A stretch of 64,000 bases of DNA from a virus (IMGVR_UViG_3300017991_000084:26830-90829); one strand, 5' to 3'. Positions 29,647 to 37,307 are shown, counted from the stretch's first letter. The notes: generated from the sequence alone by a model not told the origin. Translations and numbers: made by a program.

Positions 29647-30339
29647 TCAGACAGTGGCCCTCACCTTCGCCACCTCTTGCTGTGTGGACGCATCCTGTGC
29701 TCTGCCCAAGCACGTCTTCATCAACTTGAGAATCTCATCCGTCTTCGTGGCTGCATCACCCTCCTTCGTTAGCAACGAAGTGATCTGATCCTTGCCCTTC
29801 ATGATCTTCTCAACCCCCGTCACCACCTGAGCAAACTGCTGATCCTTAATCCCCAACTCACCCTGAACTGACGCCACCGCCTTCTGGAAGTCTTCCTTCG
29901 TCATATCACCAGGACGCTTCCGGAACAATCCCAGTAAGCCTGTAAATGCGCCAAGCCCACTAGCAGTCAATATAGTAGAGAACGCACCTCCATCCGCAAA
30001 GAGAGCCTCCTCACGTTTCTGTGCATCCTCCAAATTCTTAGTGACAATTTCATTGAGATGATTGTAGCTAATGACCAGATTCTCAATCTCCTGCTTCAAC
30101 ACAGTATGCCGCACCTCATAGGCCATGTCCACGTATGAGTCCAACTTCAGTGCCTTGTGCAGATTAGCCCAGCCCTTAAACTCGTTTGGGTCTGCCACCC
30201 CTGACTCGACCACAAACTCCACAGCCTTCTTGTCAATCGATGCCGGTGTGATATACGCACTCATGCTCGCACATCCCACACCCACTGCTGCCGTGAGAGC
30301 TGACAACACCAACACCAATCCAATCAACAGTTTCTTCAT
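29647..30339 (-). CDS. secreted lipoprotein
   Basis: Signal peptide MKKLLIGLVLVLSALTAAVGVGC (lipobox). Confidence 0.5.
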   Translation of the reverse strand: MKKLLIGLVLVLSALTAAVGVGCASMSAYITPASIDKKAVEFVVESGVADPNEFKGWANLHKALKLDSYVDMAYEVRHTVLKQEIENLVISYNHLNEIVTKNLEDAQKREEALFADGGAFSTILTASGLGAFTGLLGLFRKRPGDMTKEDFQKAVASVQGELGIKDQQFAQVVTGVEKIMKGKDQITSLLTKEGDAATKTDEILKLMKTCLGRAQDASTQQEVAKVRATV

Positions 30340-30350
30340 TGCTCTTCCTC

Positions 30351-30992
30351 CTACTTTACCATAGTCACTGTAGCGGTTCCATCCGAACGTGTCACTCTGA
30401 ACGCCCGATCTGCCATCTCAATTATCTTGTTATCGTGTGTCACGATGATGAACTGGATTCCCAACAGCTCATGGAACTTCTTGATCATCTCCACGAACTG
30501 ATCGATCTTGTTCCGATCCAGATTCTTTCCTGGCTCATCCAGCAGCATCACTGGCCTTGTCCGATGCTCATGAATAGACCAGACCACCACACGCAAAACC
30601 ATGGAAATGAGATCCAGCATCCCACCACCGACAGCGTCTTCCTTTGTCGGCAACCGGATGCCATTCTCCACCACGAAGAACCTTGTCTCTGGCTGGTTCC
30701 GCACGATCTCCGTCTGAATCTCAAACACGTAGTCCGCACCGAACACCAACTGCAAAGCCTCCGTCACCATTCCCGCGATGTATCCCTCGAACTCCTCCTG
30801 CGCCAAGGTCCCTGTGATGTTCATAATCTCCTGAGCATCTGTCAAATCAGCCACCAGCTGAATCAGCTCTTCCACGGCCTCAGACTTCTCCTGAATCTTC
30901 CCCCTCAGGTGCTTGATCTCAGCCTTTGTGTCGGACAGTGCTTCCTCATATCGCTTGATCTGGCTCATCACTGCCTCTCGGAATATAGACAC
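30351..30992 (-). CDS. Rad50/SbcC ATPase, C-terminal half (descending coiled coil plus signature, Walker B and H-loop)
   Basis: AVGGGM signature-like, MLLDEPGKNLD Walker B/D-loop, IIVTHD H-loop. Confidence 0.6.
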   Translation of the reverse strand: MSIFREAVMSQIKRYEEALSDTKAEIKHLRGKIQEKSEAVEELIQLVADLTDAQEIMNITGTLAQEEFEGYIAGMVTEALQLVFGADYVFEIQTEIVRNQPETRFFVVENGIRLPTKEDAVGGGMLDLISMVLRVVVWSIHEHRTRPVMLLDEPGKNLDRNKIDQFVEMIKKFHELLGIQFIIVTHDNKIIEMADRAFRVTRSDGTATVTMVK

Positions 30993-31162
30993 GGATCACT
31001 GAATTCAAAGGAAGCTTCTTCGTTGGAAACACAGCTGGCTGTCGCAGAGACAACTTGCACTCATCGTCACCCTCACCATTGTAGGTGTGCCAGTAAGGCT
31101 GTCCCGTACTCTGATCTGTACACAAGATTGCATACCCAGCCAAAGACCAACGACCGTCAATG

Positions 31163-31432
31163 TCACGAACCTTCGCCGCTCTTTGCATCTTCTGCTGCCT
31201 GGAGGATCGCAGCCATCTCCCTATCCAACTCACGCATGGAATCTTCATTTGCATCCAACTCCTCATCAAGCTCATTCAGTTTCGTCTCTGCCTCCGCGAT
31301 GCTCTCCACTTCGAAGTCACTCTTCAAACTATCGAGCAACGCTTTCTTCTCCCCCTCACGACGAGTCTGATCCTTGAGCAGTTCATCAATCTGTGATCTC
31401 TTTCGTTTCAGACTACCAACAATGTCTGCCAT
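31163..31432 (-). CDS. coiled-coil protein
   Basis: 89 aa, heptad-rich; lies between the Mre11 gene and the Rad50 C-terminal half. Confidence 0.35.
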   Translation of the reverse strand: MADIVGSLKRKRSQIDELLKDQTRREGEKKALLDSLKSDFEVESIAEAETKLNELDEELDANEDSMRELDREMAAILQAAEDAKSGEGS

Positions 31433-31433
31433 C

Positions 31434-32345
31434 TCATCTCTCCAACTTCACTGTAGACTCTGCGATTACTCCTCGCACACGGTCCCCTGTCTTCCGTTGC
31501 TCCATTACGCGAAGCATGATGTTCTTCCATCCGATCTGTGTAGCCTTGCCCAATTGGAGCTTGCGAATGAATTCCTCCAACTCAAGAGGCTCATGCTTCT
31601 CCTTACGCTCCAGGTCCATGACCTTCTCGATGGGCTCACATGGGACAGGGATGATCTTGAACTTTCTCTCCTGCGTGTCAAACGAGTAGACCGCAGGCTC
31701 GTGTTCCATGTCTGCCTCCTTCAGTGTCTTTCTCATCATGACACCAGGATTCAGTATGACCCTGTTCCCCACTCCATCATCAAACCTGTAGTGATAGTCG
31801 CCACAGCACACCAGATCAAAGTCTGGATACTTCCGAAGAAACGACCGTGGACCCTGAAGCTCATGGCCTGGATACAACGGACGATCCCCAATCATACGAT
31901 GGGTCACCAAAACCTTGAACCTATCATCATCCACCACCTGCGGAATATCCTGACCAAAAGGAGCACCGTAAAACATCACATCCTCTTCTCCAAACCCAAC
32001 TGGATCAGCGCCCAACAGTCGCACCACACCAGCTGCTCGCAACACCTGTAATGGAGAATTCTGAATGGTGCTCGCCGCATGCGAAGAGAGATCATGCTGC
32101 CCATACACACAGAGAATCTCTCTGCCTGCCCACCGAATAGTATCTATTGCCATGGCCGTGACCCTATTCGACACCGCATACGAATCGAAGAAGTCACCCA
32201 CCTGAATGATCACATCACAATCTTTCAGCAGCTTCAGAGATCTATACAACTTGATGCGACATGTATCTAGATAGTCCGCATCCTGCCTTCGCTCCGGAGC
32301 CTTGCTATGAATATGTAGGTCGCCTAAGATCCCAAGCTTCATTGC
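31434..32345 (-). CDS. Mre11/SbcD-like nuclease (calcineurin-like phosphoesterase)
   Basis: MKLGILGDLHIH and GDFFD motifs; start trimmed to the ATG at 32345. Confidence 0.6.
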   Translation of the reverse strand, partial: AMKLGILGDLHIHSKAPERRQDADYLDTCRIKLYRSLKLLKDCDVIIQVGDFFDSYAVSNRVTAMAIDTIRWAGREILCVYGQHDLSSHAASTIQNSPLQVLRAAGVVRLLGADPVGFGEEDVMFYGAPFGQDIPQVVDDDRFKVLVTHRMIGDRPLYPGHELQGPRSFLRKYPDFDLVCCGDYHYRFDDGVGNRVILNPGVMMRKTLKEADMEHEPAVYSFDTQERKFKIIPVPCEPIEKVMDLERKEKHEPLELEEFIRKLQLGKATQIGWKNIMLRVMEQRKTGDRVRGVIAESTVKLER

Positions 32346-32932
32346 TTCACTCCGATGCGACCCTGAGTCGGCAACAACTGTCCGTGCTTCAATGCTGCTG
32401 CCAGATCCAAAGGCTTGTAAGCTGTATCCTCCAGCGCGAACAGCAAGTGCTTCGGAGTCAACACACGCAACAGTGGTGCTTCCCAATAGTGTGGAGAATT
32501 GTTGTGGAAGTGCCCATGCACATTGAAGTCCACATCACCGAATGAACTCTGCCCAATCTTGATCGGCTTGTGTGACAACAGCACACGGTAGTACCTGTTC
32601 ATCGGCTTCTTGATTCCCTTACGGTAGACTACGTTCACCACCGCACGATCCATGACCGCAATGAATCCATTGTCCAGATACCATGCAACCGGGAACTTAT
32701 CGTGATTCCCACGAATCAGGATCTTCGTCCCAGGCAGTCCCCGAATCAAACCAGAGAACTCACCCTTCTTGTAGAATCCAACATCACCCAGGTGATACAC
32801 CACATCCTCAGGCCCCACCATATTACTCCAGTTCCTCACGATCAGAGCAGTGAAATCCTCAGGACGACCACACAGCTCGGTCATCTTCGTGTGAAACAAG
32901 TGTGTATCTGAAATCACCCACGTCTTCATCAT
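32339..32932 (-). CDS. calcineurin-like metallophosphoesterase
   Basis: ISDTHLFH, HLGDVG and GNHD motifs. Confidence 0.55.
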   Translation of the reverse strand: MMKTWVISDTHLFHTKMTELCGRPEDFTALIVRNWSNMVGPEDVVYHLGDVGFYKKGEFSGLIRGLPGTKILIRGNHDKFPVAWYLDNGFIAVMDRAVVNVVYRKGIKKPMNRYYRVLLSHKPIKIGQSSFGDVDFNVHGHFHNNSPHYWEAPLLRVLTPKHLLFALEDTAYKPLDLAAALKHGQLLPTQGRIGVKQ

Positions 32933-34002
32933 GCATCCTCAATCAATCTCTCACGTGATTCCTCAGTCAAGGCCACACCACAGTGCGGACAGTCCGTCAA
33001 CTGTGACAACAAATCCCGCTCCTCCTCACGCAGCTCTACCAACCTAAACTCATCATGCTTCGCACTCTTGTCCAATGCAATCAGACGCTTGAGGGAACCA
33101 TCCAAATCATCCGATCTACCCATGTTCGTTTGATATGTGGCAATGACCTTCTGCACATCTTCCAGCAGCCCCTCACGAACCTCAACTGCCTCCACATCCA
33201 CCTCATCGATCCGTTCCAGAGCCGTTCGCAACTGGAACCTCTTATCATCTATACGTTCCCCGTCCTCAATTAGTTCGTCCATCCTCTGAAATAGACCCTC
33301 CGCAACCTCCTCCGACACTGTAGGTGCGGCTTCTAGATCCTCTAACCGCTCCACAATGCGGCCCAAAGATTGGTGCTCACTTTGAATCGCAGCATTCCGC
33401 TCTTCCAATTCCTTGTACGCCTGTATGCATTCCTCCAGCCTCTGAATGTCCAACTGCTCTAACTGCTCCAGTTCCTCCTGCATCTCCTCAAGATCCTGCT
33501 TCGTTGTAGTCAGGCATCCTTTGGTAGACCGCAGCCTAGTAGAGATGTCAGAGGCCACAGTTGTCAGATCATCCAGACCTGTCACAGATCGCAGATAGGA
33601 TGCCACGTTCCCTGGTGAATCCTGCAACAAGAAGAACGATCCATGCTGTGTCTGAAAGTTCACATCAGACAAGCGAATCAGATCTGTCACCTTCTCCGGA
33701 ACCCCAGTCCCAAAAGCAGTGAACGGATCGGGCTCACTATCCAACTCGTACTTGCCCGTCTTCGCTGTCTTTGTCCGTGTCACCACACCATCGTCAAACT
33801 GAAGCCGAGCATACGTTCTCTTAGTGCCTTTCTTGATGAAGTCACTACCTAACGGACGATTCATATTGAGCCAATGGAGCAACCTACGAATGGCAGACTT
33901 CCCCACATGAGAGTCACCCACTATCGCATTCACCCCAGGAGACAGATCAAACACACTGTCCTCATGAGACTCAAAGTTCTTCACATGAATCTGCTCAATC
34001 AT
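32929..34002 (-). CDS. Rad50/SbcC ATPase, N-terminal half (Walker A, ascending coiled coil, zinc hook)
   Basis: Walker A GDSHVGKSA; long coiled coil; CPHCG hook motif near the C-terminus. Confidence 0.6.
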   Translation of the reverse strand: MIEQIHVKNFESHEDSVFDLSPGVNAIVGDSHVGKSAIRRLLHWLNMNRPLGSDFIKKGTKRTYARLQFDDGVVTRTKTAKTGKYELDSEPDPFTAFGTGVPEKVTDLIRLSDVNFQTQHGSFFLLQDSPGNVASYLRSVTGLDDLTTVASDISTRLRSTKGCLTTTKQDLEEMQEELEQLEQLDIQRLEECIQAYKELEERNAAIQSEHQSLGRIVERLEDLEAAPTVSEEVAEGLFQRMDELIEDGERIDDKRFQLRTALERIDEVDVEAVEVREGLLEDVQKVIATYQTNMGRSDDLDGSLKRLIALDKSAKHDEFRLVELREEERDLLSQLTDCPHCGVALTEESRERLIEDA

Positions 34003-34759
34003 CCGTTGCCCCTACGAATGGACGCGCCAACACATTCACCGGGAATGCCTTGGTCACACGGTTGAATATCTTGATCTGATTTGGAGGCAGATCTGACATG
34101 AGTAGAATACCAGAGCGCAGCTTCATCTCTGTCACCAGCATCTTCCCCAACCAGTACGCATCAATCACATCTGTGCCAGGACCATCCACATCATCACTCT
34201 TGCCCTTGACCTTCTTTGCCTTGAACAACGTGTCCGGAAGCTCAAACCCATTCTCCGCTGCTGCCTCACGCATCTCCATCTTTGTGGCACGACCGTGACA
34301 CGCAAACATCTTCACCGACATGGGATCGTGGATTCTCATCTTCCCACTACTCGCATAGATCTGGTCCTTTAGTAGACCAGTCAGCTCGGCAATCTGCAAC
34401 AACCGATTCGTACTACTCATTCCCTGATGAATTGCATACCCCTCCACACTGAAGTATGCATCTCGAAGACCATCCGGCACCGCTCGTAAGATGTGCTCTG
34501 CAAACAAGTTACGGTAATTGAACGCACGCCTCACATCATATGCATGTGACGTCTCATCCTTTCCCTTCTTCATTCCTGTGAGCACACCATGATCCGGCTC
34601 AGCCGTCACGTACTTCTTCACGTCATGGAAGAATCTCCATGAACACACCTCTCCCTTGGAATCAAAAAAACAGAACCCTCCATGGTTCAGAGAAACGTCA
34701 CATCCGATGACTACCATTTGCGTTCCTTTCTGGGATCGCTCGCGTACAAATCCTGCCAC
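33995..34759 (-). CDS. RuvC-like Holliday junction resolvase
   Basis: VVIGCDVSLNHGGF N-terminal Asp motif and C-terminal DVIDAYWLG. Confidence 0.5.
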   Translation of the reverse strand: MAGFVRERSQKGTQMVVIGCDVSLNHGGFCFFDSKGEVCSWRFFHDVKKYVTAEPDHGVLTGMKKGKDETSHAYDVRRAFNYRNLFAEHILRAVPDGLRDAYFSVEGYAIHQGMSSTNRLLQIAELTGLLKDQIYASSGKMRIHDPMSVKMFACHGRATKMEMREAAAENGFELPDTLFKAKKVKGKSDDVDGPGTDVIDAYWLGKMLVTEMKLRSGILLMSDLPPNQIKIFNRVTKAFPVNVLARPFVGATDD

Positions 34760-35820
34760 TCTTCCCAGGCTTGCTTACGCAACTCATCTTCCCAACCATT
34801 CTCCTCAATGACCTTGACCCACTTCTTGATCGTATACTCCTCACCCTTGAACTGCACCTTCGTAGTGAGTAGCATCAGCTCTTTATCCGTACACCCTTGG
34901 CACTTAGCCAACAGAACCAGATTCGAAGAGATGTCATCCAGACCATAGTCATACTGAATACGGAACAGCCCACCACGGAACGCAGGGCCGAACCTAGTCT
35001 TGACCACCGTAGAGTCTACCCACGTGCCAATGTTCACCTTCTTCGCATTCTGAATCTTGGCCTTGCCCTTCAGGTAAATACGCACGGACGACCAGAACTC
35101 CAGACCCAATCCACCCACTGTGGTCTCAGACGCAAAGGGAGACTTCACATTCGCACGTGTCTGATCGATCACCAGGATGGTGATGTTTGCATCCAACGCA
35201 CGACGTCCCCATGATCTCAACCCAAGGTGAATCTGCTTGGCGCGATATGCTCCGTACCCCTGCTCATCCATCTTCTTGTCCTGCTCAATCTCCGCAGGCA
35301 ACACAGTGATACTGTCCACCACCACCAGCCGTTTCGGGATCTCTACCGTCTTTCCCTCTTTCTTTGCTTTCGCCTTTACCTTATCCACCTCAGCCACCAA
35401 GCCACCGATGTTCTTGTCGAACAGCTCTTCAATCGTCTCCGAATGCCACAGGTGGAACTTCGGATGCCGCATGTCCATCCCACACATGGTAGTGAATTCC
35501 GGATTAATCGACCGCTCTGTGTCATCGTAGTATGTCTCGTAACCTGAGCGCTGAGCATAGCCCATGGTAGTGTAAGCAAACAAGCTCTTAGCTGTGCTGC
35601 TGCCACCATAGATCTGTGTGATGCGTCCAGCTGGCAGACCTCCAGGAAACCGATTGGCAACCGCCAAGTCCAGCTGAGTACAGCCGGTCTGAATCCAATC
35701 CTCTACTGGAGGCAGATCCAACAAGTCACACTCCTGTGACAGCTCTTCAACCTCATCACAAATGTCTGCGTCTTTCTTCTTTCTCGGCATACTAGTCCTC
35801 GTACACTGTGTCCTCGTCAT
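34711..35820 (-). CDS. RecA/UvsX-like recombinase
   Basis: GGLPAGRITQIYGGSSTAKS RecA-core-like P-loop region; LVVVDSI Walker B-like. Confidence 0.5.
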   Translation of the reverse strand: MTRTQCTRTSMPRKKKDADICDEVEELSQECDLLDLPPVEDWIQTGCTQLDLAVANRFPGGLPAGRITQIYGGSSTAKSLFAYTTMGYAQRSGYETYYDDTERSINPEFTTMCGMDMRHPKFHLWHSETIEELFDKNIGGLVAEVDKVKAKAKKEGKTVEIPKRLVVVDSITVLPAEIEQDKKMDEQGYGAYRAKQIHLGLRSWGRRALDANITILVIDQTRANVKSPFASETTVGGLGLEFWSSVRIYLKGKAKIQNAKKVNIGTWVDSTVVKTRFGPAFRGGLFRIQYDYGLDDISSNLVLLAKCQGCTDKELMLLTTKVQFKGEEYTIKKWVKVIEENGWEDELRKQAWEEWQDLYASDPRKERKW

Positions 35821-36364
35821 CCCGATCTCTCTGACGACGATTACGATTCCGCAGCTCCACGATTGCCTCCATGTTACTCTCGCTCTTGCGTCCCTTCATC
35901 GAACCCACATCACCTGAATTGTAGTACCGATGTACGACCAACTCGACCAAGTTCTTGAGCATAGCTCTACGCTGCTCGGCTGCTGTCTGAAGGATAGACA
36001 ATGCGTCTGCTGCCTTGTTCGCCTCAATGTGATCACGGATTGCTGCCTGCGTGTCAGGATGTGCCTGAACCGCTGCCTCAACTGCCTTGTCCGTGACCTT
36101 ATCCAACCCATATGTCTTGGGATTGGTACGCATGTCACCCTTCAACTTCGCCTTCACGTACTCAACATGCTCTTTCGCCTTCTTCGCGTCAGACCGTGCC
36201 TCAGATGCCAGCTCCCCAATTTGACAGAACAGGAGTGGTTGTTGAACACACTCCTGTTCCAGACCATCAGGATCAATGGAGAGTTGACCACGAAACTCAC
36301 TCAGGTGCGATTTCAACTCTTGCTCAGTCATCCTCATCTCCACTAGGCTCATCCAAAATCTCAT
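35792..36364 (-). CDS. coiled-coil hypothetical protein
   Basis: 190-aa minus ORF. Confidence 0.4.
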   Translation of the reverse strand: MRFWMSLVEMRMTEQELKSHLSEFRGQLSIDPDGLEQECVQQPLLFCQIGELASEARSDAKKAKEHVEYVKAKLKGDMRTNPKTYGLDKVTDKAVEAAVQAHPDTQAAIRDHIEANKAADALSILQTAAEQRRAMLKNLVELVVHRYYNSGDVGSMKGRKSESNMEAIVELRNRNRRQRDRDDEDTVYED

Positions 36365-37307
36365 TCACTCTGGATGCGGTTTCATCGGACGGAGCCTCTG
36401 CATCACTGCTACGTCTGCGCCGTGAACCAGAGTCCTCTTCCGCATCCTGAGACCGACGACGACGGCGACCAGTGCCCTCATCCTGAACTGTTTCCTCAGG
36501 CTGATCCCCCTCATCAGAACGACCACGACGACGACGCTCACCACCCTCTGACGAATCACTGCGAGAACGACGACGACGCTCGCCACCCTCATCCGAACCA
36601 CGACGACGTGAAGATGTGCCATTAACCGCCTGGGCCATCTCCTCATACGGGGTCTTCTTCAGCAGCTCCTCGAAATCCTCAGGCGCATCATCCAGCCAGT
36701 CATCCGGAATCGGCTCATTCTCATAGAACCGGAACCCTTTGTACTTCGTTCCCAATCCGGAACCGGAACGGGTGAACTCAATGTCACGTCCCTTGTCCGG
36801 ATCGCTTGGATCAATGATCCCATGACGACGATCCTGAGACAGCTCCGCGATATTGTCATTGACCACCACTGGAGCATCATACCAACGCAGGCCCTTGGCT
36901 TCCGTATCCTTGGTCTTGATGTCCACCACCAAGAACAGATACCGCAGCTTGGGAGCCAAATCTTTCAGCGCCTCATCATCCGCATTCTGCTCCTTCATCT
37001 GCTCGTACAACTCACAGACAGGGCACGGCTCACCAAACATCTTCCGCAAACAGATGAACGTACTCTCATCTGCCCCAATCTTCGTGTGAATGTACACCTT
37101 CTTACCGAAGTAAGGAAGATCTTTGTATGTCTCAAACTTCGGAGAGATGATACGAATCGCATTCGGCCCATTCTCCGTCTTGTACTGCGAAATGCCCAAA
37201 CGATCCAGCTTCGTTGTGTCCACGTAGAAGAACTTGCTCCCTCCACGGTTGTTAGCCTCACGCTGCTCGTTCTCGATTGCCGCTGTACGATCTCTACCTC
37301 TACCCAT
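36324..37307 (-). CDS. gp32-like single-stranded DNA-binding protein with an Arg/Ser/Asp/Glu-rich repetitive C-terminal tail
   Basis: Zn motif H...C...CPVC in HTKIGADESTFICLRKMFGEPCPVCE; acidic tail carrying SDEGGERRRR repeats. Confidence 0.55.
   Translation of the reverse strand: MGRGRDRTAAIENEQREANNRGGSKFFYVDTTKLDRLGISQYKTENGPNAIRIISPKFETYKDLPYFGKKVYIHTKIGADESTFICLRKMFGEPCPVCELYEQMKEQNADDEALKDLAPKLRYLFLVVDIKTKDTEAKGLRWYDAPVVVNDNIAELSQDRRHGIIDPSDPDKGRDIEFTRSGSGLGTKYKGFRFYENEPIPDDWLDDAPEDFEELLKKTPYEEMAQAVNGTSSRRRGSDEGGERRRRSRSDSSEGGERRRRGRSDEGDQPEETVQDEGTGRRRRRSQDAEEDSGSRRRRSSDAEAPSDETASRVNEILDEPSGDEDD
36430..36615. repeat. three imperfect roughly 45-nt tandem repeats (cgacgacgacgctc.ccaccctc...) encoding the RRRR/SD repeats of the SSB tail
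   Basis: Direct repeats visible at 36441-36475, 36520-36566 and 36567-36614. Confidence 0.6.

Follow-up and report, generated by a model that had tools for sequence, protein, structure and literature searches.

A phage Mre11-Rad50 locus in which Rad50 is encoded as separate chains cut next to the zinc hook

Here we describe a viral locus in which Rad50, the ATPase of Mre11-Rad50 (SbcCD) complexes, is encoded by two separate genes, with the gene of an Mre11-like nuclease lying between them. The locus occupies positions 34002 to 30351 (5'→3' on the minus strand) of IMGVR_UViG_3300017991_000084:26830-90829, a stretch of 64,000 nucleotides (nt) that is called the window below. The products of the two genes are designated the N-chain and the C-chain. 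The split is real and old, and it is not unique to this phage. We estimate at roughly 80% the probability that the locus encodes a working Mre11-Rad50 complex, whose Rad50 would be assembled from separately translated chains and which would process DNA ends for recombination-dependent replication.

Every long open reading frame (ORF) of the window is on the minus strand. The locus consists of six closely spaced genes, listed here in the direction of transcription:

32929-34002, minus strand: Rad50 N-chain, 357 amino acids (aa)
32339-32932, minus strand: metallophosphoesterase (MPE), 197 aa
31434-32342, minus strand: Mre11/SbcD-like nuclease, 302 aa
31163-31432, minus strand: helical protein, called CC, 89 aa
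30946-31188, minus strand: small protein, 80 aa
30351-30968, minus strand: Rad50 C-chain, 205 aa

The N-chain and MPE genes overlap by an ATGA start/stop sequence, and so do the MPE and Mre11 genes. A single nucleotide separates the Mre11 and CC genes, while the CC gene overlaps the small gene by 26 nt and the latter overlaps the C-chain gene by 23 nt. No terminator-like sites were found inside the six-gene run, and the promoter and terminator scan overall returned no more sites than expected by chance. Each Rad50 piece is present in a single copy in the window. The initial annotation had correctly placed an Mre11/SbcD gene and an 89-aa helical ORF between the two halves of Rad50. It had started the former at 32345 instead of the ATG at 32342, and its list of intervening genes was incomplete, as the conserved 80-aa gene had been overlooked in an apparent 170-nt gap.

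The N-chain contains a Walker A motif, GDSHVGKS (33895-33918, residues 29-36), and a Q-loop at Gln119. The hook motif CPHC is located at 32980-32991 and only GVALTEESRERLIEDA follows it, a tail of 15 residues before the stop. Therefore the cut falls at the very start of the would-be descending helix. The chain matches Pfam AAA_23 (1e-10), phrog_16465 (2e-27) and NCBIfam Rad50 (1e-12), and its top sequence matches in the PDB are the N-chains of Pyrococcus furiosus Rad50 (1e-6). An AlphaFold2 model based on 95 homologues has a mean predicted local distance difference test score (pLDDT) of 85.6. In this model an α/β lobe, predicted to be lobe I of the ATP-binding cassette (ABC) ATPase (residues 1-141), is followed by four arm helices (143-182, 186-225, 231-267 and 279-334), the CxxC motif and a final short helix. 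In a Foldseek search with the model, Rad50 N-chains rank first (9A9J, 1F2U, 1II8 and 3QKR; 4e-8 to 1e-6). Thus the organization that had been proposed for this ORF, namely a Walker A motif, an arm and an end just after a CPHC hook, is found in the sequence, in the profiles and in the model.

Residues G29, G34, K35, Q119, C338 and C341 are invariant in the 95 homologues. Both cysteines are also invariant, and P339 nearly so, in smaller alignments of 13 and 19 N-chains; across the three alignments identity goes down to ~20%. The last 75 residues of 13 N-chains, which include the hook, were made into a profile and compared with the PDB; the top two matches are 1L8D (E = 3.8e-4) and 6ZFF (2e-3), both of which are zinc-hook structures of P. 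furiosus Rad50. In this alignment the consensus CPsCgseLtektKkkLlgn pairs with CPVCGRELTDEHREELLSK, so that CPxCGxxLT falls on CPVCGRELT. The Pfam Rad50_zn_hook model gives a weak match of 0.044 when applied to the single N-chain sequence. The PDB, Foldseek and 1L8D matches identify the ORF as Rad50-like with a genuine hook, and not as an unrelated AAA protein.

The lengths of N-chains fall into classes of 357-368, 405-417, 454-471 and 518 aa (the window, L015-L030, L001 and L003; such numbers designate individual loci), which differ by steps of ~50 residues. The arm is punctuated by recurrent h-x-h-P(E/D) breaks. A description of the arm as a series of sequence-homologous 46-aa repeats found weak support (internal hidden Markov model (HMM) E-values of 0.003-0.2), and we keep it as an observation of length classes.

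The C-chain ORF, 30351-30992, opens at the GTG codon 30992, which the initial annotation had used as the start. The true start is almost certainly the ATG at 30968 (MSQIKRY, 205 aa), because the identical protein has a length of 205 aa in public gene calls. The motifs assigned to this half earlier are all present: a signature-like VGGGMLD (30612-30632), Walker B VMLLDE (30534-30551) and the H-loop IIVTHD (30432-30449). A D-loop, PGKNLD, is located at 30516-30533. An N-terminal helix of ~65-75 residues, corresponding to the base of the descending arm, precedes the ABC-ATPase lobe II. The C-chain matches Pfam SMC_N (2e-11, positions 135-216 of 220), NCBIfam Rad50 (8e-11) and, end to end, the 211-position phrog_15167 (1e-26). 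The top PDB match of the C-chain family profile is Rad50 of Methanocaldococcus jannaschii (3AUX, 4.5e-8, residues 4-203), on whose lsGGe signature VGGGMLD aligns. The next PDB matches are separately expressed C-chains of P. furiosus Rad50. Both halves therefore align to Rad50-type profiles.

Walker A and the Q-loop are found solely in the N-chain, while the signature, Walker B, D-loop and H-loop are found solely in the C-chain. The two proteins thus share out the catalytic motifs precisely as the two ends of Rad50 do. Neither chain alone could hydrolyse ATP. The same partition was used in engineered constructs of P. furiosus Rad50 (Rad50cd; 1F2T/1F2U, 1II8, 3QKR and 1US8), in which separate N- and C-terminal polypeptides form the ATP-binding head. 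These engineered two-chain entries are the best PDB matches of the natural halves. The constructs lack the arm and the hook, whereas the phage N-chain keeps the full arm with the hook and the C-chain keeps a short arm.

Single-chain Rad50 is the norm, and a split gene could result from a frameshift, mis-assembly or a recent disruption of sbcC. Apart from that norm, nothing positive speaks for an artefact or a decaying gene. Five contigs in assemblies of ENA, Logan and JGI encode an identical C-chain, and independent gene callers applied to those assemblies returned the same set of genes (357, 196, 302, 89, 80 and 205 aa). Scans of IMG/VR revealed 20 loci with C-chains that are 35-85% identical. 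The complete cassette of N-chain, Mre11, CC and C-chain genes is present in 11 distinct IMG/VR loci, and incomplete contigs hold compatible parts of it. The order determined with HMMs is UvsX, RuvC-like, N-chain, [MPE], Mre11, CC, small protein and C-chain, where MPE is not always present, and it is held down to 35% identity. The ratios of nonsynonymous to synonymous substitution rates (dN/dS), calculated with reference to a locus that is 76-89% identical (L011), are 0.17 for the N-chain, 0.08 for MPE, 0.08 for Mre11, 0.24 for CC, 0.13 for the small protein and 0.14 for the C-chain. All six genes are under purifying selection, and the catalytic motifs are invariant. A contiguous sbcC in relatives would have pointed to an artefact of sequencing or assembly; it was found neither in the IMG/VR loci, nor in five cultured phages, nor among 285 homologues (122 N-chain and 163 C-chain), none of which has both halves in one protein. 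With hundreds of stand-alone homologues and the layout kept in cultured phages as well, we consider an artefact or decay practically negligible as an explanation. The two-chain Rad50 with a nuclease gene inside the interruption, as originally proposed, is confirmed by the 11 IMG/VR cassettes, by the independent assemblies and by a cultured cyanophage, Microcystis phage Mvi-JY20.

To outline the extent of the family, the C-chain profile was searched against 1.84 billion cluster representatives (50%-identity clusters). There were 4517 matches at E ≤ 1e-3, 2225 at ≤ 1e-10 and 131 at ≤ 1e-30. The best 150 representatives are all stand-alone proteins of 137-295 aa, mostly of 197-230 aa. The N-chain profile yielded 182 proteins of 177-520 aa at E ≤ 1e-5. 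Many N-chain homologues are encoded on chromosomes of Bacillus, Brevibacillus, Cytobacillus and Lysinibacillus, presumably in prophages, where their annotation reads "AAA family ATPase" or "Nuclease SbcCD subunit C". A CxxC motif is present in 120 of the 122 N-chain homologues examined, always less than 30 residues from the C-terminus (2-29 residues follow it). The profile of the close clade had no match in species-representative bacterial and archaeal genomes. The split is therefore characteristic of a large family, and many phages and prophages keep the layout.

Several members are found in cultured phages. The locus of Microcystis phage Mvi-JY20 (L036, PP438412, 87229-90056) has the order of the window: an N-chain of 332 aa with CSQC at residue 315, an Mre11 of 319 aa with the motif GQHD, a CC of 94 aa and a C-chain of 205 aa, all of them annotated as hypothetical. 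In the Bacillus prophage phBC6A51 (L001), the N-chain BC1852 (518 aa, CPLC at residue 505) is followed by BC1853, the 77-aa helical BC1854, the 211-aa C-chain BC1855, BC1856 and the SbcD gene BC1857. In phage vB_BboS-125 the N-chain is gp32 (471 aa, CPLC at residue 459), and it is followed by an AP2-domain gene, gp34 of 78 aa and the C-chain gp35. In phage 0305phi8-36 (L002, NC_009760, 146905-150941), gp8 is a fusion of Mre11 with the N-chain (CPTC at residue 749 of 769), and it is followed by gp7 (92 aa, helical), gp6 and the 236-aa C-chain gp5. In Tunturi_5 (L032, PP885688, 123966-128406), a jumbo phage of the acidobacterial host Tunturiibacter, gp181 is an N-chain of 485 aa with CGKC at residue 473, gp180 is a helical protein of 97 aa and gp177 is SbcD-like. 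The C-chain of Tunturi_5 was not located, and gp179, at the expected position, is an unrelated protein of the secreted type. Finally, in Microbacterium phage Magritte (L004/L031, OR553905) the C-chain is gene 2 (284-934, annotated as "exonuclease") and the N-chain is gene 155 (93838-94890, annotated as "hypothetical"), ~39 kb away.

In vB_BboS-125 an unannotated ORF for a 326-aa Mre11/SbcD-like protein follows the C-chain gene (L003, NC_048735, 22426-23106). The AP2-domain gene of the same phage, which lies between its N-chain and CC genes, belongs to a type often linked to homing endonucleases.

The two halves might still be joined into one chain by a split intein, by trans-splicing or by ribosomal bypassing of the T4 gene 60 type. 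Phages do employ bypassing and inteins in their replication genes. Against this, about 2 kb with three to four conserved protein genes under selection lie between the halves. The 15-residue tail of the N-chain provides no space for an N-intein of ~100 aa, and the C-chain opens on a conserved arm helix and has no C-intein block. No intein families were found in the Pfam scans, and the halves in Magritte are far apart. We therefore regard joining as highly improbable.

From the above we infer that the products assemble physically, bind zinc and are enzymatically active. The N-chain would contribute lobe I of the ATPase, the whole ascending arm and the CxxC hook at its extreme C-terminus, and the C-chain would contribute lobe II, preceded by a short helix of the descending arm. 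Lobes I and II would rebuild the ABC-ATPase head non-covalently, and a shared zinc ion would link the tips of two N-chains. Mre11, whose translation would be coupled via the ATGA overlaps, would bind the base of the arm. The CC protein most likely fills the section of the descending arm nearest the hook, and Rad50 would then consist of three pieces. MPE would be an optional passenger and the 80-aa protein an accessory specific for the clade. The complex would then resect or otherwise process DNA ends for UvsX-dependent, recombination-dependent replication and genome repair.

The position of the CC protein in this scheme requires a separate consideration. Its pattern is a helix, F(G/E)VxSIxEA and a second helix. 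The CC gene lies between the N-chain and C-chain genes in 16 loci, and proteins of equal size and pattern are encoded at the same position in the Bacillus phages, Tunturi_5 and Mvi-JY20 (CC HMM 4e-4). In one intact locus (L027) no CC gene was detected. The CC protein is a conserved core component rather than a bystander. The order N, CC, C in every lineage is collinear with single-chain Rad50. On a 611-position model of LmuB, a Rad50-related protein of Lamassu defence systems (PDLC03859), the N-chain spans positions 5-347 and the C-chain 424-587, and the 76 positions left between them are approximately the size of CC. In a Logan contig (SRR490150, 1070-1957; L035) a 295-aa protein (P0073) directly follows Mre11. 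Its residues 98-291 correspond to the C-chain, its residues 1-90 form a helix-loop-helix with a pattern similar to CC, and the upstream N-chain ends with ECPACG followed by further residues. In this locus the split thus comes in two pieces. Members with a short arm have roughly balanced helix lengths, with ~173 helical residues ascending and ~9 (N-chain tail), 76 (CC) and 65-75 (C-chain) descending.

A number of observations weigh against the proposed complex or parts of it. CC and the C-chain do not lengthen with the N-chain arm: their sizes (77-94 aa and ~205 aa) stay unchanged beside N-chains of 405-520 aa, and therefore CC cannot pair with the whole ascending arm in the long-arm members. 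By hhalign, the CC protein of the window is weakly similar (P = 0.02-0.06) to its counterparts in Bacillus phages, Tunturi_5 and P0073. A single-sequence AlphaFold prediction of concatenated N-chain, CC and C-chain was uninformative (pLDDT 44.6). The C-chain signature reads GGG and not SGG. The Mre11 motifs GQHD and GDYH are non-canonical, and nuclease activity is an assumption. The Magritte N-chain is devoid of any CxxC, so that not every member of the wider family has the hook.

In a rival reading the two ATPase chains form Rad50 by themselves, and CC is a subunit of its own with a regulatory or adaptor role (kleisin-, Nbs1- or gp46.1-like). The long N-chain arms would then either pair with each other in parallel, joined at the terminal zinc site, or fold back. 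The ~50-residue steps of the N-chain arm at fixed CC and C-chain sizes agree with this arrangement, as does the arm of the model being broken into four helices rather than forming one continuous helix; CC profiles, moreover, matched only generic coiled coils in the PDB and Pfam. The collinear gene order, the CC-like extension fused to the C-chain in the Logan contig and the CC-sized gap on the single-chain CxxC-SMC (structural maintenance of chromosomes) model of LmuB speak against an adaptor, which we consider rather unlikely. In our opinion CC probably supplies part of the descending arm. The complete three-piece Rad50, with a zinc hook at a free end and a descending arm provided in trans by CC and the C-chain, is put forward tentatively, at close to even odds.

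The partner of the split ATPase belongs to the Mre11 family. The nuclease matches the SbcD-like phrog_100 (4e-12) and Pfam Metallophos_2 (2e-9). Its motifs I (GDLH), II (GDFFD) and IV (THR) are canonical, whereas III and V are the variants GQHD and GDYH, whose residues are, by sequence, potentially still capable of metal binding. Two amphipathic helical segments (LxxFIxxL ... WKxxLxxV) are conserved at the C-terminus in the family alignment and are a candidate for the Rad50-binding helix-loop-helix. Among 50,697 phage records, the sole matches of the Mre11-like nuclease are the SbcD genes of the Bacillus phages with split Rad50. This restricted distribution suggests that the nuclease evolves together with the split ATPase. 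The cognate Mre11/SbcD gene is located between the halves in the clade of the window, and it adjoins them in the Bacillus phages.

The replacement of GNHD by GQHD and of GHxH by GDYH is kept throughout the clade of the window and in the Mre11 of Mvi-JY20. The members from the Bacillus phages and Tunturi_5 have the canonical GNHD and GHDH.

MPE had also been reported between the halves, and its identity is borne out by matches to Pfam Metallophos (8e-8) and to phrog_547 "phosphoesterase" (6e-36) and by the presence of all five phosphoesterase motifs. The gene is present in some IMG/VR loci (L011, L012/14 and L022-L026) and absent from others (L015-L019, L027, L029 and L030) and from Mvi-JY20. 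With roughly half of the related loci lacking it, MPE represents an optional insertion between the genes of the N-chain and Mre11. The 80-aa protein is non-helical by composition and has a core motif GYAIL..D..tG..W.T..G...L...P.vfP. Its ORF is kept in 12 related loci and is called as a gene by independent gene callers. It has no match in Pfam, PHROGs, NCBIfam or PADLOC. The protein is probably a clade-specific accessory.

The genes upstream of the N-chain belong to recombination and replication:

33995-34759, minus strand: RuvC-like resolvase (PHROG match)
34711-35820, minus strand: UvsX-like recombinase (PHROG match)
35792-36364, minus strand: gene without an assigned product
36324-37307, minus strand: gp32-like single-stranded DNA-binding protein (SSB; PHROG match)

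Farther upstream are genes of a clamp loader, a family-B DNA polymerase and a sliding clamp (PHROG matches). The UvsX and RuvC neighbours are retained in most of the related loci. The gp46/gp47 proteins of phage T4 process DNA ends in recombination-dependent replication. By analogy with them, DNA-end processing for recombination-dependent replication is most likely the role of the complex described here.

An alternative role would be that of a Rad50-derived SMC-like sensor in defence or counter-defence, similar to LmuB of Lamassu or to the ABC ATPases of the OLD, Gabija and PARIS type. PADLOC models of LmuB do match (6e-12 over the hook region), PDLC03859 is covered by the N- and C-chains together, mad3 gives 5e-14, and there are secondary Pfam matches to AAA_15 and AAA_21. 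The LmuB matches are expected, because LmuB, also a CxxC-SMC, has its evolutionary origin in SbcCD (PMC12663957). Like the phage protein, LmuB is a short SMC-like ATPase that derives from Rad50 and bears a CxxC hook, but it is a single chain that acts with the effector LmuA and usually with LmuC. Here no LmuA- or LmuC-like effector was found, no neighbouring gene has a PADLOC match, and the partner is an Mre11-family nuclease. In addition, the synteny with UvsX, RuvC-like, SSB and polymerase genes is shared among phages and speaks for a core function in replication. The involvement of the locus in defence is improbable in our estimation.

In comparison with Mre11-Rad50, SbcCD and T4 gp46-gp47, the locus retains the distribution of Walker A and the Q-loop to one lobe and of the signature, Walker B, D-loop and H-loop to the other, a helical arm with a CxxC hook (CPxCGxxLT, as in P. 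furiosus Rad50), an Mre11/SbcD phosphoesterase partner and a module of UvsX and gp32-like SSB as in T4. It differs from these systems in that Rad50 is not a single polypeptide: there are two ATPase-bearing chains and probably three pieces. The hook is at a free C-terminus and not at the apex of a continuous hairpin. The C-lobe is encoded by a separate gene ~2 kb downstream, with the nuclease gene inside the interruption. There is an extra conserved two-helix protein of 77-97 aa, and in the clade motifs III and V of Mre11 are GQHD and GDYH.

Mre11::Rad50 fusions are known from the Mimivirus R555 group and from gp8 of 0305phi8-36 (PMC3175470). The latter belongs to the same split family, with Mre11 fused to the N-chain rather than encoded between the halves as in the window. 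In the 2011 survey by Yoshida, Claverie and Ogata, one P-loop NTPase segment of 0305phi8-36 "was not observed" (PMC3175470). This missed segment is a separate gene, gp5, three genes downstream of gp8. Other phage enzymes are naturally split, e.g., the T4 topoisomerase gp39/gp60/gp52 and the DNA and RNA polymerase subunits of phiKZ-like phages (PMC5105663). As in those cases, an essential multi-domain enzyme would be produced as separate polypeptides that reassemble. The cut described here differs in being inside a long coiled-coil arm beside a site of metal-mediated dimerisation and in being kept by phages from several bacterial phyla.

How signals pass from the hook to the head along the coiled coils of Rad50 is a persistent question in DNA-break repair. 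A natural Rad50 that is cut after the hook indicates that the arm need not be one continuous hairpin. If the three-piece model is true, coiled-coil continuity and the hairpin apex would be dispensable for Mre11-Rad50 function, and the arm could lengthen modularly, by ~50-residue steps in one strand only. Such an arm architecture would be unlike that of any solved SMC or Rad50. Head, arm and hook could then be expressed, mutated and exchanged as separate proteins. The family offers a ready modular system for biochemistry and cryo-electron microscopy, with cultured hosts available via the Bacillus and Microcystis phages.

In databases the family is annotated in parts. PHROGs has separate families for the two halves and GenBank annotation is piecemeal, with "AAA family ATPase", "chromosome segregation ATPase", "exonuclease" and "hypothetical protein" as the present labels of the halves. 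Because of such labels, and with half of the ATPase recorded as missing from one of these phages in a published survey, repair genes are under-called in inventories of phages and prophages. We found no published description of a naturally split Rad50 or SbcC in full-text searches, whose coverage excludes subscription journals, so that a prior mention is possible.

The virus itself lacks close relatives in culture: none of the 50,697 phage records contains a DNA polymerase that is more than 25% identical to the viral one, and a DNA-level search of the locus against the same records gave no match. The identical C-chain is also present on a 139-kb contig. The gp32-like SSB has a long low-complexity charged tail of Arg/Ser/Gly/Glu/Asp repeats (…GGERRRRSRSDSSEGGERRRRGRSDEG…). 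Immediately downstream of the C-chain gene, at 29647-30339 on the minus strand, is a gene of a 230-aa protein with a lipoprotein-like signal and a lipobox at the N-terminus (MKKLLIGLVLVLSALTAAVGVGC). This gene has no family match and is retained 3' of the C-chain gene in many related loci. The GC skew is strongly negative throughout the window, from -0.19 to -0.36.

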